DNA from: Candidatus Binataceae bacterium | Lineage (GTDB): Bacteria > Desulfobacterota > Binatia > Binatales > Binataceae | Direction: 5' to 3' | Assembly: GCA_035295545.1 (NCBI GenBank) | Contig: DATGIT010000009.1 | Coordinates: forward strand, 140,823-204,822 | DNA length: 64,000 bases | In this document: one piece after another, positions 1-47,000 of the stretch | Position numbering within the stretch: the stretch's first letter is position 1 | How the letters are laid out: each line of letters starts with the position of its first letter | The notes under the pieces: generated by a model | What the model was told of the DNA's origin: nothing | The model's database searches: none | The model's input: the letters and a program-made list of their open reading frames with translations, nothing else | Program-made: the position numbers and the translations under genes

Positions 1-722
1 CGCGCTCGTAGTCCGCGGGATGCGTGCGGTTGGTGGTGCCGACCTCGCGCAGCTGCGCGCCGCTGTGCTGCATCAGGTCGGGCAGGCGAAACGAGCCGCC
101 GATCTCGATCAGCTCGCCGCGCGACACCACGACCTCGCGGCCGGCGGCGAGCGAATTGAGCGCGAGCAGCACGGCGGCGGCGTTGTTGTTGACCACGGTC
201 GCGGCCTCGGCGCCGGTCAGCGCGCACAGCGCCTCCTCGACCAGCGAATCGCGCTCGCCGCGCCCGCCGGCGTCGAGGTCGTATTCGAGATTGACCGGCG
301 CGCGCGCCGCCGCGGCCATCGCTTCGATCGCCGGCTCGGCCAGCGGCGCACGCCCCAGATTGGTATGCAGCACCACGCCGGTCGCATTGACCACCGCGCG
401 CAGCGCCGGCTCGTCGGCCGCGATGGCGGCGCGCGCGCGGCGCACGATTTCATCCACCAGCCGCGCGCGCGCGGGCGCCGGGCTATGCGCCGCCTGCGCG
501 ATCAGCCCGGAGCGCACTTCGGCCTGCGCCCGCCGCAGCATCAGCCTGACATACGCATGTCCGAGCCGATCGCACTCGGCATCGCCGGCGAAGGCGCGCA
601 GGCATTCGTCGATCGACGGCATCGCGCGCAGCGCTTCGGTGCGCAGCTGCGTCGTCGCGTGCGCGCCCGCCGCGCGGCCGCGCGGCGTTTTTTTCGACTG
701 TCCCGAGTCCATTTTCGTCCGG
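1..722 (-). CDS. selA: L-seryl-tRNA(Sec) selenium transferase SelA, N-terminal ~240 codons; gene runs off the window start
   Basis: Reverse-strand translation from ATG at 722 gives [12 protein letters not shown]...[21 protein letters not shown]...[16 protein letters not shown]...[73 protein letters not shown]. This matches the conserved SelA core (E. coli ...[16 protein letters not shown]...EYDLD..GRG.RD...[18 protein letters not shown]...[24 protein letters not shown]...EVGTTNRTH). It is not in the six-frame track because it has no stop inside the window. Confidence 0.85.
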
Positions 723-8435: not shown

Positions 8436-10988
<2,553 letters not shown>

Positions 10989-11048
10989 CGCCGAGGCGTT
11001 CGGGTCGGGCCGTTGGGCCGCGCGCAAAGAATGACGCGGTCGAGGAAA

Positions 11049-11121
11049 CGGGCGGCTTCCGGGACTTGGTAATCTCTCCCGGTCCCCGTGACTGCAGGAC
11101 CGATTCAACGGAAGCCGCCCG
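11049..11121 (+). other. Long perfect inverted repeat / structured RNA candidate downstream of gyrA
   Basis: CGGGCGGCTTCCG (11049-11061) pairs perfectly with CGGAAGCCGCCCG (11109-11121). The 47-nt interior contains a nested GGTCC...GGACC stem. No U-tract follows. Confidence 0.35.
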
Positions 11122-11454
11122 ATCTCATCTCCAGCACGAGGGATGCCAAAGAAAAATCGAGGTTGCGCTTCGCTCCGCGCAAGTCCTTGTAAGCAGGAAA
11201 TTATAAAAAGCTCCGGCGGAGAGAATTTCACTCCTCTCGCTGGCAAGCGAAATTCCGGTGCGATCGCTGCCTCGCGCGTGATCTTGCGCGACCCTCTCGA
11301 TCGGCTCGAACCGGCCGTACGGCCGAATCGTGTCCGCTATATCGACTGAGAAAGGCGGTGGACGCCGCGTCCGGGCGCACGGACACGGATGCCGCGATAG
11401 TGCGCGGCTGCGCGGCGATGGACACAGGGCGTTCGCCGGGCGTAAGAAACTTCC

Positions 11455-12366
11455 ATGCCCCTCGATTCATCCCTGGTCGGCACCGCATCGGAGCTGATCG
11501 AGTCCGAGGTCGACGTCGCCTGGACCATGGCGTACGCGGCCGGGGTGGGCGACGCCCTTGCGTGTTATCTCGACACCACCCGCGCCGACGGCATCATCGC
11601 GCATCCGATGTTCACGGTGGGAATCGAATGGCGCGCGATGACGCAGATAATCCGCGTGCTGAGCGAGGCAGGTTTTCCGCGCGCCGAGATGCTGCGGCGC
11701 GTGCATGCGACCGACGACGTGACCGTGCATCGCCCGATCCGGCCGCCCGAGCGCCTGTTCACGCGCGCGACACTTGCCGGAATCGAGCGGCGCAAGGCCG
11801 GCGCATACCAGCTAACCCGCTTCGATACGACGGACGAAAAAGGCGCGCCGGTCTGCACCACCTGGTACGGCAATCTCTACCGCGGGGTGGAAGTCGCGGG
11901 ACCCGACCGGCCGCCTCCGAATGCGCCGGCGACGCGCGGCGCGCCGGCCGATGCGACCGCGGCGCACGCGAGCTTCGCGATTCCGATCTCGCCGGTGGCG
12001 GCGCATATCTACGGTGCGTGCGCGCGCCTTGGCAATCCGGTCAATATCCATACGGATCTCGCGACCGCGAAGAAGGCGGGCCTGCCCGGAACGATCCTGC
12101 ACGGCACTGCGACGCTGGCGATGGCGGTTTCGCGCGTGATTGCGGCCGAGGCCGGCGGCGATCCGGCCCAGGTCGCGCGAATTCATGGACGGTTCGGCGC
12201 GATGGTGCTCATGCCGTCCGAGATCGAGGTGCGGATCGCCGCTGCGGAGCGCGGCGCCCGTACCGGCATCGAGGGCGGAAGTCAGGGCAGGACCGTGTTC
12301 TTCGAGGTGTTGAGCGCCGACGGAGGGCATGCAATCCGCGACGGATTTGTCGCCCTGCGCGGATAA
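11455..12366 (+). CDS. MaoC-family dehydratase, double hotdog fold
   Basis: C-terminal MaoC signature (NPVNIHTDLATAKKAGLPGTILHGTATLAMAV). 303 aa. Confidence 0.7.
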   Translation: MPLDSSLVGTASELIESEVDVAWTMAYAAGVGDALACYLDTTRADGIIAHPMFTVGIEWRAMTQIIRVLSEAGFPRAEMLRRVHATDDVTVHRPIRPPERLFTRATLAGIERRKAGAYQLTRFDTTDEKGAPVCTTWYGNLYRGVEVAGPDRPPPNAPATRGAPADATAAHASFAIPISPVAAHIYGACARLGNPVNIHTDLATAKKAGLPGTILHGTATLAMAVSRVIAAEAGGDPAQVARIHGRFGAMVLMPSEIEVRIAAAERGARTGIEGGSQGRTVFFEVLSADGGHAIRDGFVALRG

Positions 12367-15377: not shown

Positions 15378-15989
15378 ATGGCGTGGATTCGGACGATCTC
15401 GGAGCAGGCGGCGGACGGGCCGCTGGCCGAACTTTTCGCGAAACTCCGGCGCAATCCGCACTTTGCCGGGGTGCCCAATATAATCAAGGCCTTCAGTCTG
15501 CGGCCGGAAATCGCAGCAGCGGTGACCCGGCTCTCGACCGCGGCAACCTTCGGCGGCTCGCATCTCACCCGCGTGCAGGAGGAGATGATTGCCACGGCAG
15601 TGTCGGCGGCGAATCGATGCCATTATTGAACGAATGCGCACGCGGAGGTGCTCCGCGTCGAATCGGGCGGAGAACACGCGCTGGTGCAGGCGATTAAGGA
15701 GAACTGGCGCGGTGCGGCACTGGGCGAGGCCGATCGCGCGATGCTGGCGTATGCCGAGAAGCTCACGCGCACGCCCTGGGCGATGACCCGCGCCGACCTG
15801 GACGAACTGCGCCGCCATTTCACCGAGGAGCAGGCCTACGACATCGTCGTGATCGCATGCCTGTTCAATTTCATGGACCGCGCGGCGGACGCATTCGGCG
15901 TCGAGCTTGATGCGACGCTGCGCGCGCGCGCACGTTCGGCCCCCGAGGGCGAGGCGCTGGGCGAGGCCGCAGCCGGGAAGCGGAGTTGA
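15378..15989 (+). CDS. Putative selenoprotein: AhpD-like / carboxymuconolactone-decarboxylase-family peroxidase-related enzyme with in-frame TGA (Sec) at 15627-15629
   Basis: The tracked ORFs 15339-15629 and 15648-15989 are in the same frame and separated by a single TGA. The read-through product is ...MIATAVSAANRCHY[U]TNAHAEVLRVESGGEHALVQAIKENWRG..., so the TGA sits exactly at the second Cys of the family motif N-x-C-x-Y-C-x-x-x-H. The N-terminus (MAWIRTISEQAADGPLAELFAKLRRNPHFAGVPNIIKAFSLRPEIAAAV) matches this family. A hairpin follows 10 nt downstream. Confidence 0.75.
15640..15658 (+). promoter_or_regulatory. Candidate bacterial SECIS hairpin for the AhpD-like selenoprotein
   Basis: ACGCGGAG-GUG-CUCCGCGU is a perfect 8-bp stem (or a 6-bp stem with a 7-nt AGGUGCU loop containing GGU). 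It starts 10 nt after the UGA at 15627-15629. Confidence 0.55.
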
Positions 15990-23053: not shown

Positions 23054-23503
23054 ATGACTCCGCACGAATTCGCGCGCAGCCTTAACGGTCTGTCTGCCGG
23101 AACCCTGATCGAGAATATGGAGATGCTGGAGGCAGGCGAGGGCCGCGCGCGGTGCCGCATGGAGTTAAAGCCGCATCTGCGCCAGCTCACCGGTTTGTTT
23201 CATGCCGGCGCGGTCGTGGGGCTCGCGGACACGGCCGCCACCGCGGCTGCGATGTGGGAATTGAATCCGACCGGCGAATTTCGCCCGGAGCTGTTTCCGC
23301 TTTCGATCCAGGTCTCGGCCAACCTCATTCGTAATACGAATCGTGGCGCACTGACCGCCGCTGCCCAACTGATTCATCGCGGCAAAAGCACGATGGTTGC
23401 CGAGGTGCGGGTGATCGACGATCAAGGGCGGCTGATCGCCAAGGTTACGGTGACCCTGATGGTGCCGAAAGCATCGGCGCAAAAGGGCCGCGCGCAAGTT
23501 TAG
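23054..23503 (+). CDS. PaaI-family hotdog thioesterase
   Basis: 149 aa. LFHAGAVVGLADTAA motif and hotdog-fold length. Confidence 0.65.
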   Translation: MTPHEFARSLNGLSAGTLIENMEMLEAGEGRARCRMELKPHLRQLTGLFHAGAVVGLADTAATAAAMWELNPTGEFRPELFPLSIQVSANLIRNTNRGALTAAAQLIHRGKSTMVAEVRVIDDQGRLIAKVTVTLMVPKASAQKGRAQV

Positions 23504-23835
23504 TTGCGAAACCGGTCGCTCAGGCGCCGCAGCATCCCGGCGCTCGCGTTGCGCTTCCGTCCCTCGTCCGACTCGTGCGCTGAAGCCGTGCCGCCGGGGG
23601 CGACGCCTGATGTTTTGAGGTTGGCGATCAGGTCTTCGACCTCGCCCTCGGCCGGAAAGCGGCCGGCCTCGGCCTTGGAGAAGATCAATTTTCCATCGAC
23701 CAGAATATCGAACTGGCCGGTTTTGCCGACCTTTATGTCGGCCTGCTCGCCGAACCGTTTATGTATCGACGCGGCCAGACTGGCCGCGCGCGGCTTGTAG
23801 CCTCAAGCGGAACAGTAGAGGATTTCCGTAGCCAT
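23500..23835 (-). CDS. selW: Putative selenoprotein: SelW/Rdx-family protein with in-frame TGA (Sec) at 23805-23803
   Basis: Minus-strand translation from ATG (23835): MATEILYCSA[U]GYKPRAASLAASIHKRFGEQADIKVGKTGQFDILVDGKLIFSKAEAGRFPAEGEVEDLIANL... It aligns to the SelW CxxU motif (VVYCGAUGYKSKYLQL ... FEVMVAGKLIHSKKKGDGY). Only the post-TGA part is in the ORF track. A SECIS-like hairpin lies 12 nt downstream. Confidence 0.8.
23769..23789 (-). promoter_or_regulatory. Candidate bacterial SECIS hairpin for the SelW-like selenoprotein
   Basis: The mRNA after the UGA reads GGCUACAAGCC then GCGCGGCC-AGUCU-GGCCGCGU, a 7-8 bp stem with a 5-nt loop containing G and U. Confidence 0.55.
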
Positions 23836-23861
23836 TGTCTTCTCCAGATTGCGTCGACCGC

Positions 23862-24425
23862 CTACCGGGTTTCCGGCAGATCGACGAACACCGCCGCGGC
23901 GACGACCGAGGTCCACAGCCCGTCGCGGTCGCCGATCGCGGATTGCGTGATGTTGCGCGTGGTGACGATTTTGTCCGACACGCGCCAGACGTCCTTGCGC
24001 ACGTCGTAGCTGGCGTTGGGATCGAAGTCGACGCCGAGGATCGTGGCCAGCATCATCGCGGCCAAATCCTCAGCATAGTCGCCGGCCTTCTGGTCGGTCT
24101 CGCCGAAGCTGTGATGCTCGGAGAGATAGCCGTAATAGCTCGAGTTGGCCGGGATCGCCAGGCCGACCGACGCGGCGATCAGGCGATGGGGCTCGTCGGT
24201 TGCGTTGTCGCTGACGACCGCATACACGATCTGGCCCGGGGCGAGGCGCTTCAGCCCCTCCTGCGGCGTAATCAGCTTGCAGTAGGGCGGGAAAATCGAT
24301 TGCACGCGCACCAGGTTGTACTCGGCGATATTGGCCGAACGCAGCGCCAGCTCAAAGGCAGTGAGTTTCTCGCGGTGCTTGCCGACTCCCTTGGTCAGGA
24401 ACACGCCCTTTGGCAGCGGCCCCAT
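23862..24425 (-). CDS. pdaD: Pyruvoyl-dependent arginine decarboxylase (PvlArgDC family)
   Basis: MGPLPKGVFLTKGVGKHREKLTAFELALRSANIAEYNLVRVQSIFPP matches the PvlArgDC N-terminal signature (FFLTSGxG...SFDxALLxAGIGNxNLVxVSSIxPP), including the serine that becomes the pyruvoyl group. 187 aa. Confidence 0.65.
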   Translation of the reverse strand: MGPLPKGVFLTKGVGKHREKLTAFELALRSANIAEYNLVRVQSIFPPYCKLITPQEGLKRLAPGQIVYAVVSDNATDEPHRLIAASVGLAIPANSSYYGYLSEHHSFGETDQKAGDYAEDLAAMMLATILGVDFDPNASYDVRKDVWRVSDKIVTTRNITQSAIGDRDGLWTSVVAAAVFVDLPETR

Positions 24426-37282: not shown

Positions 37283-38143
37283 TCAGAAATAGACATTCTG
37301 CATCGTGCGCACGCCTGCGCGCCGCTCTCTGATTCGAGGATGGTCGAACAGGTGCAGGAGAAAAATCTGATCTATCCAGCGCGCGTCTTTGAAGAGCCGC
37401 CGCGAGCGCAGAAAACGGTACTGCTCGATTTTGCGCATTTCATGTTCGGCGTTGAATTCGTTGATTGCGAGCAGTTCGCCGGCCCAGTTGCTGTAGGTCG
37501 GCAGCACGATGTCGTCAAAATACAGAATCGGCAGGAACAAATACTTGGCCGCGTTGGGATCGGCCAGCAGACCCAGGGCCGGTTTGGTTGATGAATAGTA
37601 ATCCAGATCGAAGGCGGCGAACCCCAGTGGTGCGTCGGTGCTGAGCGAGTTGCCGACGAACGCCGGCACGGTCTGGTGAACCGGCCCGAGCACCAACTCG
37701 CAATTGGACGGCAGACTCGTTCGCAAGCGCTCGTGCTCCATCGGAAAATCGCCTGCCTGAAATTCCTCCGGATGGTCGCGGTAGTCGGACGGCGGCGGCA
37801 TTCCCGCTCCGCTGTCGAAGCCGACGATTCTGACGCCGACCCCGGTCGTGCGGCTTACGCGGCTCGCGATCGCGCACAGGTTGAGCAGGCCTTCGCCGGC
37901 GGCGACGCCGAATTCCACCGCCGTGAAGCACTTTACGCCCGCCTCGCGCGCCTGGTCCGCCGCAGCCAGAAGCCCATACGCGTAGTGCGGTCGGCTGATG
38001 AGATCGCACGCGACCTTCGCGCGGAAAGTTCCCAGCAACGCGACCGCTGCCGAGGCTGCATTCAGATGCAATGGCTCGGTGAGCCGCTCGCGCAGAATGC
38101 GGTAACGAGCGCTGCGCTGCCGGCGTAGCTTGCGGAGCAACAT
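37283..38143 (-). CDS. TylF/MycF-like class I SAM-dependent O-methyltransferase candidate
   Basis: VKCFTAVEFGVAAGEGLLNL and FAAFDLDYYSSTKPAL...LYFDDIV resemble the macrocin-O-methyltransferase family (IVECGVxRGGS...LDGDLYEST...DDY). Lower GC than the chromosome average. Confidence 0.45.
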   Translation of the reverse strand: MLLRKLRRQRSARYRILRERLTEPLHLNAASAAVALLGTFRAKVACDLISRPHYAYGLLAAADQAREAGVKCFTAVEFGVAAGEGLLNLCAIASRVSRTTGVGVRIVGFDSGAGMPPPSDYRDHPEEFQAGDFPMEHERLRTSLPSNCELVLGPVHQTVPAFVGNSLSTDAPLGFAAFDLDYYSSTKPALGLLADPNAAKYLFLPILYFDDIVLPTYSNWAGELLAINEFNAEHEMRKIEQYRFLRSRRLFKDARWIDQIFLLHLFDHPRIRERRAGVRTMQNVYF

Positions 38144-38157
38144 CGCTTCGGTCCTCC

Positions 38158-39948
38158 TCAGACGCGGATGCGGCGCGCGAATTGTCTGGCCAGCGCCAGC
38201 ATGCGCTCGTTGCCGGCGAGATGATTGTCGCGAAATTCCGACAGCCAGCGGCGCAATGCGACACGGGCCTCGTGGGCCACACGGCTGCGCGCATCGAGCG
38301 GCGCGCGCTCATTCGTCCGGCTCACTTCGACCGTCGCCTGCTCGCCGGGATCGAGTTCGAGTTCGGCTGCGAGCCGCCCGTGCGCTCTTCGATGCTCCAG
38401 AGGCGAACCGTTGAGCAACAGCCCCGCGTCCGGATCTTCGTCAGCGACAGGTCGCGAGATCGTGAAGACGGTTCGCGAGCCGTATGGATTACGCATCCGG
38501 AAGCGTCGGGTATAGAATTTCGCTTCGGCCGCGGCCGGCCCGGTTTTCCTGTACAGCGCCGTTTCCGTCAGACTGGTCTCGAGCGGCGCCCACGAGATGC
38601 GCGGCTCCATTTCATTGATCGAACGCACAAATTCACAGGCGGCTGTATAGCCATTTTTGAAATAGTCGTGATGCTCGACGATCAGAGCCGGCTTGCCCAT
38701 GAACAGATCGAAGGCAAACGGAAACGACGCAATCGGATATCTTCGGCCGAACAAGGGCAATCCGCCGTCGCCGACCACGGCCACGTCCAGCAGGTCGCGA
38801 ATGGTCAGTTGCCGGCGGAAGGAGCCGGACGCCAGGACCGATGTATTCACCGCGGCGAGGTAGCCTTCGGCCGCCAGCGCCCGCAACGCGGCGCCTGAGA
38901 AGCCGCCTTGCGGGAAAATCATGATTGGCTCGCATGGAAGCCCGCTGCTTGCCGCATGCGCCCGCATCCGGCTGATTGCGGTGCGCGCCTTGTCGCGAAG
39001 CATCGCTTCGTCTTCGTCGGCAAATTCGGCGGCCGTATGATCGCAACCGTGGATGCATAGCGAGAAGCGGTTGCCGTGCGTGCGCAGCAGATCGGCAACC
39101 TGGGGATCGGTCCGGCGATAATTCCACGGAATGAATGCCAGCGTGGTCGCGAATCGATGAGCTTCCATCTCGGCGACGAGCCGATCGAAGCGCAGAAATC
39201 CGTAACGCGGGCGCAGCAGCGGGTCATCGATGGTGAGCGTCGCGTGCGGCGCCGGGTTGCTCCAGCAGTATTCGCTGAACGCGCTGCGCAGAAACAGCAG
39301 CGGCGGCAGCAGGCTCGCGTAGTGCCGCGCGTCCAGGCCGCCGGCCTCGGCTTTCTCATCGAGATCCGCCATCTCGCCTTCGGCGCAGAGGAAAATCCGG
39401 CACCCGCGGAGTTTCGCCAGCGCCAGGCATGGGCGTTGCTCGAGCGTTACAATCTGACTGACTGCGCCGCCGCGCAAATCCGCCTGTCCGACGGCAAAGC
39501 CGCGCGCGTCCGCGCTTGGTGGGAACTTCAGCCCGGCCAGCGGTCCCGCGATCTCGCGCGCCGCCGGCGAGATCGCGTAAGCTCCGGAGTTACCGTGGCT
39601 GTCAGCGGAGCGGAACAGCGCGCGATCGGTGAGCCATGCGGCCACATCGTCGCCCTCGTTCGGCCGGAACCCATAGATGAAAGCATGATCGAAACCGGCC
39701 AGCAGCGCGTCCGGCGAAGCGGGTGGGATGCGGGCCTGATCTTTGAGCCGCGCCAACGCGTTGCTGCTGGCCGCGATAGCACTGCATCCTCGCATCTTCG
39801 CCGAATCCAACAGGTCCTCGCCGGCGCCATCTCCGCATACCTTCAGCGTCAGCGCCTCGACGCCCATCATTTCGACGAGCTTCGCGAGTCTCAGGTCCGA
39901 AGCGCGGCTGGCCGCGCATGAGAGCAAGGCGAGTCGTGAAGCGGCCAC
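38158..39948 (-). CDS. Hypothetical 596-aa protein with a CE4 (polysaccharide deacetylase)-like central region
   Basis: LTIDDPLL (resembling TFDDG) is followed ~65 aa later by LCIHGCDHT (HxxxH-like). The N-terminal ~200 aa and the C-terminal region have no recognisable motif. Confidence 0.4.
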   Translation of the reverse strand: MAASRLALLSCAASRASDLRLAKLVEMMGVEALTLKVCGDGAGEDLLDSAKMRGCSAIAASSNALARLKDQARIPPASPDALLAGFDHAFIYGFRPNEGDDVAAWLTDRALFRSADSHGNSGAYAISPAAREIAGPLAGLKFPPSADARGFAVGQADLRGGAVSQIVTLEQRPCLALAKLRGCRIFLCAEGEMADLDEKAEAGGLDARHYASLLPPLLFLRSAFSEYCWSNPAPHATLTIDDPLLRPRYGFLRFDRLVAEMEAHRFATTLAFIPWNYRRTDPQVADLLRTHGNRFSLCIHGCDHTAAEFADEDEAMLRDKARTAISRMRAHAASSGLPCEPIMIFPQGGFSGAALRALAAEGYLAAVNTSVLASGSFRRQLTIRDLLDVAVVGDGGLPLFGRRYPIASFPFAFDLFMGKPALIVEHHDYFKNGYTAACEFVRSINEMEPRISWAPLETSLTETALYRKTGPAAAEAKFYTRRFRMRNPYGSRTVFTISRPVADEDPDAGLLLNGSPLEHRRAHGRLAAELELDPGEQATVEVSRTNERAPLDARSRVAHEARVALRRWLSEFRDNHLAGNERMLALARQFARRIRV

Positions 39949-39951
39949 GGG

Positions 39952-40275
39952 TCAAGGCGCCGGATTCGCCAGCAGGTTGCGCAGCGCGTCGATCAGGCTA
40001 CCCAGGGTTTTAAGGTCGTCGCTGTTCAACGGACTTTCCCCTTCTTCGGCGGCGAGAACGATTTCACGTCCCAGGGAGTCGCGAATTCCGTCCTCGATGA
40101 ACACCAGCAGATTGATCACGGCCAGCGAGTCGAACGCGCTTCCGTCATCGAGCAGCGGGACCGCGCGGCTCTTAGGCAGCCGCTGAGCGCCGGACAAGAG
40201 CTCGTTTACGCTATCGATCGCGCGAAAGACGATCGCTTCAACCGCTGCTCCGGCATTGCCATTCGACTCCGGCAT
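39952..40275 (-). CDS. Acyl carrier protein
   Basis: 107 aa. Phosphopantetheine-attachment motif DDGSAFDSLAVINLLVFIE (DSL). Confidence 0.65.
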   Translation of the reverse strand: MPESNGNAGAAVEAIVFRAIDSVNELLSGAQRLPKSRAVPLLDDGSAFDSLAVINLLVFIEDGIRDSLGREIVLAAEEGESPLNSDDLKTLGSLIDALRNLLANPAP

Positions 40276-40324
40276 CGACTTCCCTCACTTCACGGATTTT
40301 GCGGGCGGATGCGCCGACCGCGCA

Positions 40325-40870
40325 CTACGTAACGGTCCGCGACGCGGACCCGTTTCCGGTTTCGCGGGGCGGACGCGCGGGCCGCAGCCCGCGAAGGAAC
40401 GATACGTACGAAGGCGCCGTCGCCAGCGGGACCGCCACCGTGGCCACGACCTGGGGAGCCGCAGGCTTGACGAAGGTGAAAGGGGCCACGTCACTCGTGA
40501 TAATCGAGCCAGCGCCCACCACCGCACCTTCGCCAATAGTAAGAATGCGCCCCTTGGCGCTGCTGATCAGGCAGCAGGCGCCGATCCAAGCGCCTTTTTT
40601 TATGACCACCTTACCGGGGCCGCGCAGGTGGGCGATAATCACGGATCGGAGTCCGATCTCGACGTCGTCTTCGATCTCGATACAGGTCGGATACTCATTC
40701 TCCAGATAGACATCGTCGCCGATGAAGACATTGCGTCCCAGGCGCACGCCTCTCAGGCGATGGAGAAAGGGCCGCAGGCTTCGGCTGCCGGGCAAAGCGC
40801 GCGCCATCAAATGGAGCACGCGGTTCACCGCCCCGCGAGGAAGAGAATTGCGCTCGACCTGGTTTGCCAT
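40325..40870 (-). CDS. Hexapeptide-repeat (left-handed beta-helix) acyl/acetyltransferase
   Basis: Imperfect hexapeptide repeats (IGDDVYLE...IEIEDDVEIGLRSVII...KGAWIGACCLISSAKGRILTIGEGAVVGAGSIITSDV). Start taken at MANQVERNS; the longer 213-aa version is also possible. Confidence 0.65.
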   Translation of the reverse strand: MANQVERNSLPRGAVNRVLHLMARALPGSRSLRPFLHRLRGVRLGRNVFIGDDVYLENEYPTCIEIEDDVEIGLRSVIIAHLRGPGKVVIKKGAWIGACCLISSAKGRILTIGEGAVVGAGSIITSDVAPFTFVKPAAPQVVATVAVPLATAPSYVSFLRGLRPARPPRETGNGSASRTVT

Positions 40871-40874
40871 CCAG

Positions 40875-42704
40875 TCAGTCAACCGCTTGCGTGGCCGGTC
40901 GGATATGCCGGTGCGCACGCGGCGGGCGTGCCGCTTGATCGATCGCCGGCCAATCCGCCGCATCATTCGCCAACGATACGCACCCGGGAAGCGGGTAATC
41001 CCGATCCAGGCTCCAATCGAAGACCCGCGACTCGGTTGAGTTGCCGGAGGTTTCGGTCATGCCGCTGCCGCAAAAAAAGCGCAGGCAGGGCTGGTTTCTT
41101 GCCGTGGGCAGATACCCGGCGCGGAGCGACGACGAGCCGGCGCGCCGTGCCTGCGCGGCGAGCGTGTGGAGCATCGCTTCTTCAATTCTTCGCCCCATCA
41201 CTCGGCAGCTGAGGACGAAATCTTCTATATTTGCCGTTGCCGCCGGGCGGTCCAGGCTGAGCGAGCCGATGCCGACCAATCCGTAGTCGCCGAACCTGTC
41301 GGCCACGCGAAAGACCAGCACGCGACGATCGGGCGCGGACGCCCACGCCAGCATTTCCGACGCCGGCAGCCTCCGCGTGCGCAGATTCATCTGGTTGGTC
41401 TTGTTCAGGAGCTGCGCGGCGCGTTCCAGGTTGGCGGCGCTCAATTCCTCGACCTGGACGCGCAGCTCGAGCGTGGCGAGCCAGGCATCCAGCGACGGCA
41501 CGGTTTGCTGCAGCTGTTTGCGCCGGCGCTCGGACAGGTACATCGCGCCGCGCGCGCGATCCTCCGCGCTCACCGCGGGCGCGTCAAAGCAGTCGAGCGC
41601 GCGCAACGCCGAGGCGAACTCGAGCGGGTTTTGCGGCCACTGCGGCACCAGCAGCGCGGGCAGCGCTTCGGCGACCCGCGCCCGCTCCACCGGATGGTCG
41701 TCGATCAACACGGCCGCGTCGAGTCCGAGATTCAGCTCGGCGACCAGCTCCGCGATGTTGCGCGCCTTGTCGTTCCAGTCGATGCGCCAGCCGGCGAAAT
41801 CGTCCAGCTTCAACACCATCTCCGGATGGTTGGCGATGGCCTCGAGCGCGGTGCGCTCTTCGTTCTTGCTCGCGATTGCGAGCAGGACGCCGCGCCGCGC
41901 GAGCGCTTTGAGCGCGAGCTGAAAATCCCGAAAGGCTTCGCCGACCGCGTCATGTCCGCCCAAGCGCAGCGCGCGCCAGCCGACGTCGCCGACCACCCCG
42001 CCCCACAGCGTGTCGTCGAGGTCGAGAATCACGAGCTTGCGCGCGCCGCCCGCGATTCCTGTGAGCGCAGCGCTCAGGTCGCGCGCCGCCGATTTGAACA
42101 CGTCGAGCGAGAAGGGAATCTTCGCCAGGTACCACATCCGGGCGTCGCAGGCGCGCGTGCCGGCCTGTGCGATCCAGCGCGCGGCATCGAACAGATGGAT
42201 CCGCGGGTCGCCGCTCACGGCCTCGGCCAACGCCAGGTTCATGCGCATCAGCGTCGCGCTCGGGCCGATGGTCGGATGCATGTCGAGCAGTCCGCGGCGG
42301 CCTTCGAACGCGTGCATCGGCGCCCAGGTCGGCACCAGGATCGACTTGACGTGCGGCGGTATCGCGGCGAGCGCGCGCGCGTACGCGCGCACTTCCTCCA
42401 TCATCTGTTCCAGCACCAGTGGCTCGTATGCCAGCACGCCGGCGTATGCCTTCGAGATCGCCTGCGGCGACGTCCATACGACGGCCGCGTCGAGGTCCGC
42501 CTGCCACACGGCGGAATGCGCGGCGAGCAGCAGCTGCATCACCTGTCCGAACGGAGCAGCGGTCGCGCGAAGTCGCGCTCCGTTTGCGCTCCAGTTGGAA
42601 AGCAACGAGGCCAGGTTCTGCGCGTTGAAATCCGAGACTATGAGGATATTCCTCGTGTGCAGAGCGGCGCCGTCCGCCCGAATGACCGTGTCCACCTTGT
42701 CCAT
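40875..42704 (-). CDS. FkbH-like HAD-superfamily (subfamily IIIC) protein with C-terminal GNAT-like domain
   Basis: KLVILDLDDTLWGGVVGD (HAD DxDxT motif) with the FkbH-like domain architecture and a C-terminal VFRVADRFGDYGLVGIGSLSL...FVLSCRVMGRRIEE domain. 609 aa. Confidence 0.65.
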   Translation of the reverse strand: MDKVDTVIRADGAALHTRNILIVSDFNAQNLASLLSNWSANGARLRATAAPFGQVMQLLLAAHSAVWQADLDAAVVWTSPQAISKAYAGVLAYEPLVLEQMMEEVRAYARALAAIPPHVKSILVPTWAPMHAFEGRRGLLDMHPTIGPSATLMRMNLALAEAVSGDPRIHLFDAARWIAQAGTRACDARMWYLAKIPFSLDVFKSAARDLSAALTGIAGGARKLVILDLDDTLWGGVVGDVGWRALRLGGHDAVGEAFRDFQLALKALARRGVLLAIASKNEERTALEAIANHPEMVLKLDDFAGWRIDWNDKARNIAELVAELNLGLDAAVLIDDHPVERARVAEALPALLVPQWPQNPLEFASALRALDCFDAPAVSAEDRARGAMYLSERRRKQLQQTVPSLDAWLATLELRVQVEELSAANLERAAQLLNKTNQMNLRTRRLPASEMLAWASAPDRRVLVFRVADRFGDYGLVGIGSLSLDRPAATANIEDFVLSCRVMGRRIEEAMLHTLAAQARRAGSSSLRAGYLPTARNQPCLRFFCGSGMTETSGNSTESRVFDWSLDRDYPLPGCVSLANDAADWPAIDQAARPPRAHRHIRPATQAVD

Positions 42705-42710
42705 CCCCGC

Positions 42711-43673
42711 CTAGCGCGAAGAGCTCCGCGCCATCTTCAAAGAAGTCCCGATCTGCCTGCGCGCGTCGGAGCCCGGAGCTGCACGCGTGACCGTCGCCCG
42801 CGCCTGCGGCGCGCGCCGCACGCGCAGCGCCAGGAAAATGCGCCGTTTGAGTTCCGCTGCCCACGGCACCCAGTCATACGCGCCGACCAGCTTGAGATGA
42901 AACTCGATCATCCAATCATCGGGATCGACGCGCACTCTGCCAATCAGGAATTCGCACGGGTCCTCAAGCGCCCGCGCCGGCATGCCGTCGAACGCCCGCT
43001 GGTAGCCCGCCATCCGGCACAGCGCGAGCGTCTGCGGGGTGTGGACTCCGAACGGGAAACAGAACAACACCACTTCCTGTCCGAGCACCTGTTTGAGCCG
43101 TTCGCGCGAGTCGATGAGTTCGCGCAAAGCCTCGCGCCGGCCGGTCGCGACCAGGCGCCGGTGCGAGCAGGTATGCGACCCGATCATGACCAGTCCGGCC
43201 GCAATGTCCGGCTGCAACGCGCGCAATTCCGTCTCGGAAACGATCCGATCGCGTTGCCCGCCCAGATGCTCACCCATGCAATCGGAGATGACGAAGATCG
43301 CGACCGGAATGCGTCGCTGCTTGAGCTCCGGCAGAGCATTTTCGACAAAGCTGGTCCATCCGTCGTCCGCGGTGACCATGGCGTAACGTCGCCCAGGAGG
43401 AAGGGGTGCTCTGTGATCTGCGCTAATCGGCACGGCCCAACGCAGCAGATGATCCATTTGCCTGGCGAATCGGTCGCGCTGTTCGGGCAAAACCTGATGA
43501 TAGTAGATGCCCGTCGCGTGCCCGGGACGCCTGGAGCCGAGCACCCGCGTCAATCCATCGACCAGCGACCGCAGCAGCCAGAAGCTCATCGACAGCAGAA
43601 ACTTCACCAAGCGAAGGAGCGGATTGGGTGCGAAGGGGGGCATCGCAGCATCGTGTGCTTTGAGTCTGGACAT
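42711..43673 (-). CDS. Polysaccharide deacetylase (CE4/NodB-homology) family protein
   Basis: RRYAMVTADDGW (TFDDG-type motif) and MIGSHTCSHRRL (HxxxH). N-terminal hydrophobic segment. Confidence 0.7.
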   Translation of the reverse strand: MSRLKAHDAAMPPFAPNPLLRLVKFLLSMSFWLLRSLVDGLTRVLGSRRPGHATGIYYHQVLPEQRDRFARQMDHLLRWAVPISADHRAPLPPGRRYAMVTADDGWTSFVENALPELKQRRIPVAIFVISDCMGEHLGGQRDRIVSETELRALQPDIAAGLVMIGSHTCSHRRLVATGRREALRELIDSRERLKQVLGQEVVLFCFPFGVHTPQTLALCRMAGYQRAFDGMPARALEDPCEFLIGRVRVDPDDWMIEFHLKLVGAYDWVPWAAELKRRIFLALRVRRAPQARATVTRAAPGSDARRQIGTSLKMARSSSR

Positions 43674-44089
43674 ACCGACACGTCAGGCTGGCGGAGCGCT
43701 CTTGAGGCAGGGAGCAACTTTTATGCCCTGCGTTTCGTGCTCTTTGGACTAAAAAAGTGCGAAATCGTTACTTGGATTCACCAGGCGCGTCTGCAAAATC
43801 GAATCAGCCTCTTGCAATTCTTGCCGACTCGATTTCTATAAAAGCAATCTACCGCCGAGGACCTGAGCAGGCGATGTCTGGCGCGAATCGGCTTGCAAGC
43901 GCACCGTACGGTGCTGCGCAAGGTGCCGCGTACCAGCCAGCACCGGGTTTATGTTGAGACTCAAGGACCACGTCGCACGCCCAAGTCGATGCGTGCGCGT
44001 AACCAAAATGACGCCGCCAGCTCCGGAGAGATTTGTAGCGCCCGATAAATGAAGACTAATATGCGGGTATCTGTCGCAGGAAAACCGCG

Positions 44090-47000
44090 ATGGCTGACGA
44101 CAGTCGGGACCAGCAGGCAAAGCAGCGGCGCGTTCCCGTCTGCGGGATAGGAGCCTCTGCCGGAGGCCTCGAAGCACTGCAGAAGCTGTTCGGCGCTTTG
44201 CCGAACGATCTGGGTCTGGCCTACGTGGTCATTGTCCACCTTGCTCCGGATCGCAAGAGCGATCTGCCGGCCATCATCGGCCGCTGGACGCAGATGCCGG
44301 TGACGCAGGTGGGCGACCACGACAGGGCCGCGCTGGCGGGCAATCACGTCTACGTGATTGCGCCGGACCGCCGGCTCGAAATCACGGATACCTCGGTCGC
44401 TGCGGCAAATTTCGAGCAGGTGCGCGGTCAGCGGGCGGCGATCGATCTGTTTTTCCGCTCGCTCGCTTCGGCGCGCGGTGACGGGTTCGCGATCATTCTT
44501 TCAGGCAGCGGTTCAGACGGCGCGCTGGGCGCGCGCGCGGTCAAAGAGAGTGGCGGGGTGGTCCTGGTGCAGGATCCGCAGGAAGCGGCTCACAGCGATA
44601 TGCCGCAGGCGGTCATTGCCACGGGGGTTGCGGATGTTGTGTTGCCGGTGAAGGAACTGGTCGCGCGACTGGCCGATTTAGCGCGCACCAAGGACAGCGT
44701 TAACTCGCTCGCCAACGCGGAGGAATCCCAGCGCTTCGATGAACGCGAGGAGCGCGCGCTGCGCGGTATCTTCGACCTGCTACGACGCCGCACCGGCCAT
44801 GATTTCTCCAAGTACAAGCGCAACACGGTGTTGCGGCGGCTCGCCAGGCGCATGCAGCTTTCCCACCAGCTGACGATCGAGGATTACCTGCACTTTCTCC
44901 GCCGCGATGCCGGGGAGGTGGGTTCGCTTTTCGACGATCTGCTGATCTCGGTCACCTCGTTTTTTCGCGATGCGGACGCCTGGGACGCGCTGCAGGCGCA
45001 GGTCATTGTTCCGCTGCTCGATCGCACGGCGGTTGAAGAGCAGCTGAGGGTATGGGTCCCGGCGTGCGCCACCGGAGAGGAGGCATACACGCTCGCGATC
45101 CTGTTCCATGAGGTGTTCGAACGTCTCGGCGTTCAGCGCGATCTGGTTATTTTCGCCTCGGACGTGGACGAGCCCGCGCTGGCGGTCGCTCGGGAGGGAT
45201 TGTATCCGCGGGCAATCGCCGCCGATGTGACGGAGCTGCGACTGGACCGGTATTTCCGGCTCGAAGGCGACCATTACCGGGTGGCAAGTACCATCCGCGA
45301 CCATGTGGTTTTCGCCGCGCACAATCTGCTGCGCGATCCGCCGTTCTCACGGCTCCACCTCGTCTCGTGCCGCAATTTGCTGATCTATCTCGATCGCGAG
45401 CTGCAGGAGCAGGCGATGGCGGTGTTCCGGTACGCGTGCCGCGACGAGGCTTTTCTGTTCCTGGGAGCTTCGGAAGTGGCCGACGCGGAAATGTTCCAGG
45501 ACGTTGACAAGAAGCACCGCATCTTTGTGATCCGCCCGCGAACCGACGGCAACCGCACTCCCTTGCCGGATGTTCTGGCGACGCAGACCGGACCGATGGT
45601 TCGGCGCGAAGCCCAGGCGCCCATGCGTACCAACCTGGCGGAGATCCACCTCGCGGCGCTCGAGGAGGCGGCGCCGCCGACGGTGGTCATCGATGAGCGC
45701 TGGAACGTGCTCCACCTGTCGCCGAGCGCATCGCGCTTTTTCCAGCAGAGCGGGGGACCGCTGGCGCAACGCATCACAGACCTGATCAGGCCGGAACTAC
45801 GCGACGATTTGCACGCCCTGCTGCACCGCGCCGCGGAGGCGCGCGGGCCGCAACTCTCGGCCTTCATCTCGGTGACTTTCAACGGCGCGCTCCATCGCGT
45901 CGCCATGTTGATCCAGCAGCCGCGCAACGCGGACGGAATCGCGGCCCACGCCCTGATCACTTTTCTCGACGCCGGCGAGGCCAGCGAGCAGCCGGCACCC
46001 GACCAGGAGCCGACCAGTGAAATGGTGCGCGCGTTGCGCGAAAAGCTGCGCCAGGCCGAGCAGCGCATCGAAAACATGCGCGACGACTACTATCTCACTA
46101 ACGAAGATCTGCGCGCCGCCAACGAGGAGTTGCAAAGCCTCAACGAGGAGTATCGCTCGACCACCGGGGAACTTCAGACCAGCAAGGAAGAGCTGCAGAG
46201 CATCAACGAGGAGCTGCAGACCGTCAACCAGGAACTCAAGCAGAAACTCGAGGAGGTTTCGCGCGCGAACAGCGACCTGGAAAACCTGATGGCCGCTGTT
46301 GACGTGGCGACGCTGTTTCTCGATCGCCAGTGCCGCATCAGCCGCTTCACTCCGCGTCTGGGCGAGATCTTCAACGTCAAGGCCCGGGATCGCGAACGCC
46401 CCATCAGCGATATCACGCACGTGCTCGATTACGCCGCGCTGGAGAGCGATGCGCGGCGGATGATTGCCGGCTCCAGGCCGTTCCAGCACGAAGTCAGGAG
46501 CCGCGATGGACGGGTCTTCGTCGCGCGCCTCAATCCCTACCGCCAGATCGGCAAGGATGAGATTGACGGCGTGGTTATCACGTTCATCGACGTGACCGAG
46601 ATCAAGGCGGCCGAGGCGGCCTTGCGCGACAGCGAACGCAGGCTCGAGGCGGAACTCGACGTGATGCGGAAGCTCCATCGGATGACGATGGCGATGGCCA
46701 CGGCGCCGACGCTGGTGCAGGCTCTGAACGAGAGTCTGAACTCGGCGATTAGCCTGCTCGGGGCGCAATTCGGCAGCGTCCAAGTGCTCGATGCGGATTC
46801 GCACAAGCTGAAAGTCATAGCGCAGCGCGGTTTTCAGCCGGAATTCCTGAAAACCTTCGACTCGATCGGAACCGAGGACAATTCCTCTTGCGGTCGCGCC
46901 CTGCGCTCGCATGCCTCGGTGCTGATCGAGGACGTGGCCTCAGAGCCCGACTATACGCCGTATCGCGCGACCGCTGCTGCCGCCGGCTACCGCGCGGTCC

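Follow-up and report, generated by a model that had tools for sequence, protein, structure and literature searches.

A probable SelW-like selenoprotein gene in Binataceae, with an in-frame UGA codon followed by a SECIS-type hairpin

The Binataceae (Candidatus Binatota) are abundant uncultured soil bacteria. We analyzed a 64-kb stretch of DNA from one member of this family (64,000 nucleotides, hereafter the window) and found, at positions 23500..23835 of the minus strand, a complete gene of the SelW-like (Rdx) family that is very probably functional, with a product of 111 residues in which the UGA at codon 11 is read as selenocysteine (Sec); the decoding, redox, tail and pdaD parts of this reading are predicted. 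The gene belongs to a long-known family of bacterial SelW-like selenoproteins, and gene callers routinely truncate it. At the level of sequence, the locus shows every feature expected of the Rdx/SelW family and of bacterial Sec recoding.

On the minus strand, the reading frame from the ATG at 23835-23833 to the TAA at 23502-23500 was interrupted by one TGA only (23805-23803), at codon 11. The translation, MATEILYCSA-[TGA]-GYKPRAASLAAS...MLRRLSDRFRN, matched exactly that of the preliminary description, in which the TGA had been placed at the CxxU position; the cysteine that pairs with U11 in this motif is Cys8, encoded by the TGT at 23814-23812. A Shine-Dalgarno sequence, GGAG, lies 6 nt 5' of the ATG (23842..23845, minus strand) and was kept in the nine closest relatives (L001-L009), in which the proteins encoded around the SelW-like gene were 90-95% identical to those of the window. 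As had been remarked earlier, a list of open reading frames gives only the piece that follows the TGA (23500-23688, 62 aa, TTG start), and the public gene calls on the same contig likewise contain this 62-aa piece instead of the full gene.

With U read as C, the protein matched the Pfam Rdx family PF10262 with an E value of 4e-17 (62.6 bits; cutoff 22.6) over residues 4-71 (23623..23826), which correspond to profile positions 3-73 of 74, and it scored 55 bits against the NCBIfam model TIGR02174 for SelT/SelW/SelH (cutoff 34.2) and 79.5 bits against NF041051, under the equivalog cutoff of 88. The 62-aa open reading frame alone matched no family in the profile search and lacks the redox motif. 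The best sequence matches among solved structures were MIEN1 (2LJK, E = 1.9e-9) and mouse SelW (2NPB, E = 3e-5); the motif C8-S-A-U11 aligned with those of SelW (2NPB), MIEN1 (2LJK) and Atu0228 (2FA8), and residue 11 fell on the active-site position in the alignments with both 2NPB and 2LJK. Hence the SelW/Rdx identity proposed at the outset held when the N-terminal 11 codons were included. An AlphaFold2 model of a relative (P0002) contained a helix, three strands and a helix in the expected order, at a mean pLDDT of 60.8 and with the first strand unmodelled because the alignment lacked N-termini. Published bacterial SelW-like sequences were directly similar, for example that of Alkaliphilus, MKKLSIEYCTGUGYLPKA...IFSKKEVGRFP.

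The reading of the TGA was addressed by comparison with 76 related loci from species-representative genomes. These were retrieved by the peptide pattern GRFP[AV][DE]GEV, which is C-terminal, far from the TGA and independent of it. Sixty-one of the 76 loci came from Binataceae or from similarly placed "delta proteobacterium" metagenome-assembled genomes (MAGs), giving 62 Binataceae sequences with the window, and the other 15 came mainly from Obscuribacterales, Gaiellaceae and Desulfobulbaceae. TGA occupied the CxxU position in all 77 sequences (the window and the 76 loci), that is, across the Binataceae, Obscuribacterales, Gaiellaceae and Desulfobulbaceae. Among the 62 Binataceae sequences, the amino acids encoded by the 10 codons 5' of the TGA were kept (M, A, T, E, I, L, Y, C ...) while the third positions of these codons varied (variability of up to 0.55), which indicates that the codons before the TGA are translated. 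In addition, six relatives (P0125, P0140, P0143, P0146, P0171 and P0173) carry CxxC at the Sec position, as in MATQILYCGICGHKPR of P0125, and the solved bacterial Rdx proteins likewise have CxxC there. Nearly all relatives in protein databases were called in truncated form, and the remaining letters at the Sec position include G (P0002) and W (P0130, P0135, P0136 and P0169). Truncated calls of this kind are a known artefact for selenoprotein genes.

Downstream of the UGA, a bacterial SECIS-type hairpin was found at 23769..23789 on the minus strand, with the 5' arm GCGCGGCCA (23789-23781), the loop GUC (23780-23778) and the 3' arm UGGCCGCGU (23777-23769). Its stem of 9 pairs, with a G-U at the base and the loop closed by an A-U, begins 13 nt 3' of the UGA, and the loop lies 22 nt 3' of it. 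The hairpin itself had been recognized in the preliminary description and stands, whereas the spacing of 12 nt given there was corrected to 13 nt. Folded alone, the window hairpin had a z score of -2.1, and 3 of 200 shuffled sequences folded as well; the single-sequence fold beat the shuffles by a modest margin, and the strength of the case lies in the comparison with the other loci. The helix was present in all 77 sequences, with 7-9 pairs, and was thus kept with covariation in 76 of the 76 related loci; the loop was GUC or GUU in 72 of the 77, and the distance from UGA to loop was 22 nt in 70. Covariation was counted in an alignment of 42 distinct sequences, with 500 column shuffles and slid registers as the control. 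In this alignment, 89.9% of cells were paired, and four pairs showed compensatory changes, with 22 cells altered on both sides; the covariation score was reached by none of the 500 shuffles, and pairing dropped to 27-48% when the partner was slid by 1-3 columns. RNAalifold independently recovered the core six pairs. The helix was also formed from other bases and under another peptide in Obscuribacterales (GCUGUCA/UGGCAGC) and in Desulfofustis (GCUUCC/GGAAGC), and in Gaiellaceae it was displaced by one codon (GGCCGCGA/UCGCGGCC). Moreover, third-position variability in the Binataceae was 0.02, 0.00, 0.00, 0.00 and 0.13 at the five hairpin codons, compared with 0.45-0.69 at the codons adjoining the hairpin, which indicated that the RNA is constrained here in addition to the protein.

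A stem-loop directly 3' of the UGA, with a small apical loop that includes G, has been described as the bacterial SECIS feature (PMC1088965). A search of the whole window against Rfam at gathering score returned nothing relevant, and in a search of 23650-23900 at E values up to 10 the sole match (E = 0.34) was unrelated. Models of the bacterial SECIS allow about 16-37 nt to the loop and a loop of 3-14 nt. For comparison, the E. coli fdhF element was fetched and folded. In fdhF, as here, the hairpin follows closely on the UGA and is itself part of the coding sequence, and its apical loop presents G-U closed by A-U (CAGGUCUG in fdhF, CAGUCUG in the window). However, the loop has 4 nt in fdhF and 3 nt in the window, the G-U lies at +23/24 in fdhF and at +26/27 in the window, and the fdhF stem carries a bulged U, whereas the window stem is a continuous, GC-rich helix of 9 bp with no bulge. 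The window hairpin is thus a putative element that would work like a SECIS and is not of the fdhF subtype. By analogy with fdhF, the mRNA hairpin 13 nt after the UGA would present G-U in its apical loop and would recruit SelB-GTP-Sec-tRNA(Sec), and the UGA would then be read as selenocysteine and not as a stop. As expected for the family, the product would be a thiol/selenol oxidoreductase built on a thioredoxin-like domain, in which an exposed redox centre, C8-x-x-U11, would cycle between the selenol/thiol and selenenylsulfide forms.

The machinery for Sec insertion was sought with tblastn, using the SelA and SelB sequences from the supplement of PMC1794560 as queries. At the left edge of the window, the SelA of Anaeromyxobacter matched positions 5-634 of the minus strand (46% identity, E = 1e-24), and the fragment concerned, the 5' part of a selA gene (1..712, minus strand, start at about 712) cut by the edge, scored 263.8 bits against the equivalog model TIGR00474 over profile positions 1-205 of 455. 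The genome therefore carries a Sec synthase gene, 23 kb from the SelW-like gene, and is not devoid of Sec-insertion machinery, a point on which the first reading of this gene had been made to depend. No selB, selC or selD was found in the 64-kb window; a tRNA scan detected no tRNA in the window and no tRNA(Sec) near the SelW-like gene in 60 related loci. In one related MAG (L061), the SelW-like gene has selA and selB at a distance of 4-6 kb.

Mapping of the public gene calls onto the window yielded a second candidate selenoprotein gene, of the AhpD-like/peroxidase-related kind (15378..15989, plus strand), in which two adjacent small "genes" of the public annotation are joined across a TGA. The plus-strand translation contains the motif C-H-Y-[TGA], with the TGA at 15627-15629, and with U read as C the protein scored 111.3 bits against TIGR01926 (cutoff 81.8) over residues 3-175, a match that spans the TGA. 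A scan of the window for TGA codons followed by hairpins found an 8-bp hairpin, ACGCGGAG-GUG-CUCCGCGU, 10 nt after this TGA; the minimum free energy fold chose another pairing there. AhpD-like CxxU proteins are a published family of bacterial selenoproteins (PMC1088965). Two further candidates were set aside: the in-frame TGA at 39952-39954 (minus strand), between coding-like segments, is an ordinary stop after a carrier-protein-like open reading frame, and the TGA with hairpin at 45347-45349 (minus strand) is antisense to an open reading frame of 1411 codons. The scan is not a complete search for selenoproteins, as it missed the SelW-like gene itself, which has only 10 codons before its TGA. 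Judged from their sequences, the SelW-like locus, selA and the AhpD-like candidate together show that Binataceae decode Sec.

Other explanations of the TGA and of the hairpin were weighed against this evidence. If the TGA were a true stop, the locus would be a pseudogene, or its real product would be a shorter protein started at the internal TTG (23688), as the open reading frame list, the public calls and the nearly always truncated database relatives suggest at face value. The 62-aa protein, however, has neither a family match nor the redox motif, the 10 codons before the invariant TGA are conserved as protein with varying third positions, GGAG precedes the ATG at 23835, and truncation is what gene callers are known to do to selenoprotein genes; we therefore consider a true stop extremely improbable. 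Reassignment of the code or near-cognate suppression could instead place Trp, Gly or Cys at the UGA, and such read-through would account for the database entries with G or W, but these letters stem from the translation tables of the depositors. UGA is also the ordinary stop of gyrB, dsbD, cobQ, an acyl-CoA dehydrogenase gene and others in the window, and the true stop of many related SelW-like genes, so that a general reassignment of UGA is excluded. Together with the conserved SECIS-type hairpin, the presence of selA in the window and the occurrence of either Sec or Cys at the corresponding site in the family, this makes decoding as another amino acid highly improbable. Alternatively, the hairpin might have no function as RNA and be a by-product that arises because the peptide R-A-A-S-L-A-A is conserved and the genome is GC-rich. 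The same peptide was also kept in some Cys-form relatives (P0140 and P0143), and part of the sequence conservation there is therefore at the protein level; the modest advantage of the window fold over shuffles also fits a by-product. Yet lineages with AVSLAAD, ASGLEAE or, with a shift of one codon, TRAASLAAE retain the helix through compensatory changes, the peptide is RMENLAA in the closest Cys-form found, and neither the suppression of third-position variability at the five hairpin codons nor the double-sided changes, absent from all shuffles and lost in slid registers, would be expected of a by-product, which we consider very unlikely. The preliminary reading of this TGA as Sec is thus upheld by its invariance in 77 of 77 sequences, the Cys-forms, the covariation of the hairpin and selA in the window.

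A further explanation concerns the upstream gene pdaD, for a pyruvoyl-dependent arginine decarboxylase (23862..24425, minus strand; PF01862, E = 3e-56; TIGR00286, 120 bits), with which the SelW-like gene might form a functional unit, the selenoprotein being dedicated to arginine decarboxylase or polyamine metabolism. The two genes are on the same strand, with 26 nt between the pdaD stop and the SelW-like ATG, as first described, and their adjacency, with gaps of tens of nucleotides, was found in the majority of the 61 related loci from Binataceae. In the window, the gap holds no site that resembles a promoter or a terminator. However, about 1 kb separates the two genes in five loci, pdaD is absent there in two, and no locus outside the Binataceae among those retrieved has pdaD near the SelW-like gene. 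The adjacency is also part of a larger order in the Binataceae, in which carboxylase subunits and methylmalonyl-CoA mutase precede pdaD and the SelW-like gene, followed in many loci by a convergent thioesterase, a chlorite dismutase-like gene and cobQ; synteny extends over this whole block, and the pdaD/selW pair is thus not singled out by its adjacency. No chemistry is known to connect a pyruvoyl enzyme with a CxxU protein. We propose that the linkage is probably positional rather than functional, and a dedicated functional link between the SelW-like gene and arginine decarboxylase is unlikely.

The earlier suggestion of a pdaD-selW transcript stood in part. In the clade of the window, the conserved adjacency, the GGAG site that the window shares with L001-L009 and the lack of a terminator- or promoter-like site in the gap of the window make co-transcription reasonable, and the SelW-like gene is probably transcribed together with pdaD there. 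In contrast, 49 of the 62 Binataceae sequences carry an element of the form TTGnnn-N16-18-TAnnnT that ends 6-8 nt before the ATG. These 49 sequences have no GGAG-type ribosome-binding site, and the second hexamer often holds an in-frame TAG. An element of this form 6-8 nt before the ATG is arranged like a promoter that gives rise to a leaderless mRNA, and the SelW-like gene therefore probably has its own start in most Binataceae, which also argues against a dedicated unit with pdaD. A search of the literature on leaderless bacterial selenoprotein mRNAs, and on Binatia and selenocysteine, found nothing relevant. A conserved stretch 3' of the stop codon in the Binatus loci was considered as a possible RNA gene; there is no tRNA there, and the stretch is taken to be the end of a convergent gene on the reverse strand.

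Beyond the Rdx domain, the window protein continues for 37 residues (residues 75-111; 23503..23613), which bears out the C-terminal tail noted in the preliminary description. This extension consists of a variable linker of Ala, Pro, Ser, Gly and charged residues and of the terminal segment MLRRLSDRFRN (23503-23535), which is conserved, basic and amphipathic. Beyond the domain, about 45 of the 62 Binataceae proteins run on for 24-42 residues, while 16 other Binataceae proteins and nearly all of those from outside the Binataceae stop within 0-8 residues of it. In the roughly 45 tailed loci, the linker varied in length and sequence and the end was conserved in frame despite these changes, reading GMLRRL(S/T)D(K/R)FRN in the clade of the window and GFVGR(M/I)L(G/D)KLRN in Binatus. 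In nearly every tail, the terminal 11-mer had the highest helical hydrophobic moment; that of the window was 0.80, and in a weak test 80 of 2000 shuffled tails attained this value. The AlphaFold2 model of P0002, a full-length relative, placed a helix at residues 89-99, the tail end, at low confidence (pLDDT 60.8). Among 1.84 billion representative proteins, only two clusters matched through the tail, and amphipathic C-terminal ends unrelated to this one were seen in other Rdx proteins (P0171 and L074).

We speculate that the flexible linker and the short basic amphipathic helix would tether the domain to a membrane surface or to a partner, since prenylation at the C-terminus anchors the closest solved relative, MIEN1, to the membrane (PMC3527542). 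MIEN1 (C17orf37; 2LJK) has the Rdx fold and a redox-active motif, which is CxxC in MIEN1 and CxxU in the window protein; its anchoring uses CAAX prenylation, which the window protein cannot use, whereas an amphipathic helix is proposed here. A short, basic, amphipathic terminal segment after a flexible linker, as in the ...KKPEGFVGRMLGKLRN of relatives of the window protein, also recalls the membrane-targeting helices of MinD-type proteins, a likeness that implies no homology, and the hydrophobic face of the window tail comprises about four residues only. The C-terminal end of E. coli MinD reads ...KKGFLKRLFGG. Although speculative, tethering of the redox domain to a membrane surface or partner is probably the role of the tail. 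The wider proposal, of a tethered subclass in the Binataceae in which a tail of the form GMLRRLxDKFRN or GFVGRMLGKLRN holds the Sec centre to the membrane, on its cytoplasmic face, or to a fixed partner and in which the mRNA is mostly leaderless, is possible but doubtful. A ribosome that starts on the 5' end of such a leaderless mRNA would encounter the UGA as its eleventh codon, and the SECIS would lie only about 45-65 nt from that end. If the proposal were true, the tethered SelW-like proteins of the Binataceae would be a bacterial counterpart of prenylated MIEN1.

Bacterial CxxU SelW-like selenoproteins were reported in 2005, and in the Sargasso Sea data they outnumbered every other selenoprotein family (PMC1088965). 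They have also been catalogued in bacterial genomes (PMC1794560), and both NCBI and JGI have models and names for the SelW-like family. The window protein shares with the examples of Zhang, Gladyshev and co-workers (2005-2006) the single small domain, the N-terminal C-x-x-U and the ...FSK...GRFP... motif, as well as a UGA near codon 10-13 with a hairpin directly downstream. It differs from these examples, which have 74-81 residues and no extension, in its tail of 37 residues with the basic amphipathic end, and its host belongs to a lineage outside the published surveys, the Binataceae. Mammalian SelW (2NPB), with a thioredoxin-like fold, aligns with the window protein in the CxxU, in the GYKP(K/R) that follows Sec directly and in the core strands; the sequence likeness is modest, at the E value of 3e-5, and mammalian SelW has no tail of this kind. 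In eukaryotes, the SECIS is an element of another type, located in the 3' UTR (PMC1088965).

The main value of these results lies in the annotation of the SelW-like genes of this clade. Its close relatives are truncated at the TGA or given G or W in its place, and as a result public protein data do not show the redox motif of the clade. The features worth recording are the conserved amphipathic tail, the bulge-less SECIS with a fixed register and the leaderless-type promoters of the sister clades. The comparative set is a clean natural example of an RNA element that constrains synonymous sites within a coding sequence, and it also yields a SECIS variant whose register is fixed. Neither the tail nor the leaderless-type promoters alter the classification; both may serve as modest leads on the function of bacterial SelW.

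Genes of the selenocysteine (Sec) machinery were observed on the same stretch of DNA as a SelW-like gene both in the window and in a related locus. The 5' part of selA, encoding L-seryl-tRNA(Sec) selenium transferase, occupies positions 1-712 of the minus strand; although the gene is cut by the left window edge, this fragment matched the NCBIfam profile TIGR00474 with 263.8 bits over positions 1-205 of the 455-position profile alone. In the unclassified MAG L061, the SelW-like gene is followed 4-6 kb further downstream by homologues of selA and selB, which lie on the minus strand at about 10208-12141 in locus coordinates and are 59% and 51% identical, respectively, to their Anaeromyxobacter counterparts. 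In addition, an AhpD-like, peroxidase-related gene on the plus strand (15378-15989; TGA at 15627-15629) carries a C-H-Y-U motif followed, 10 nt after the UGA, by the hairpin ACGCGGAG-GUG-CUCCGCGU, and we propose it as a candidate second selenoprotein of the window; public gene calls present it as two genes of 83 and 113 aa.

SelW-like genes with an in-frame TGA and a matching hairpin were also found outside Binataceae, in three Gaiellaceae loci (L063, L064, and L076) and in MAGs of Obscuribacterales and other Cyanobacteriota/Melainabacteria (L062, L065-L070, L073, and L074). The Sec-decoding trait was reported to be absent from Cyanobacteria in a 2006 survey (PMC1794560), and these non-photosynthetic cyanobacterial relatives appear to have it. 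In the large protein collections, nearly all close relatives (P0001-P0124 and P0130-P0169) are either cut short on their N-terminal side at the TGA or, owing to the translation table applied, show G or W in place of Sec; thus, the redox motif of this clade is missing from public protein data.

Elsewhere in the window, a run of coding-like ORFs on the minus strand (37286-42710), which includes a small carrier-protein-like ORF (39952-40284, minus strand), adjoins a polysaccharide deacetylase gene (42714-43682); its ORFs of 341, 597, and 611 codons gave zero Pfam matches at 1e-5.

At its 3' end, the minus-strand SelW-like gene converges on a plus-strand hotdog-fold thioesterase gene (23054-23503), and the SelW-like TAA and the thioesterase stop codon overlap by 4 nt (23500-23503), which leaves no space for an intervening terminator. 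At the other end, loci L010-L060 and L075 stood out by the 40 nt preceding the SelW-like ATG. A ribosome-binding site was absent in 49 of the 62 Binataceae loci, and the same 49 share a conserved TTGnnn-N16-18-TAnnnT element that ends 6-8 nt before the ATG. Judged from sequence, this placement is the layout of a putative promoter for a leaderless mRNA. Such an arrangement would place a Sec-UGA at codon 11 of a leaderless transcript; our literature search for bacterial selenoprotein mRNAs of the leaderless type gave no relevant paper.
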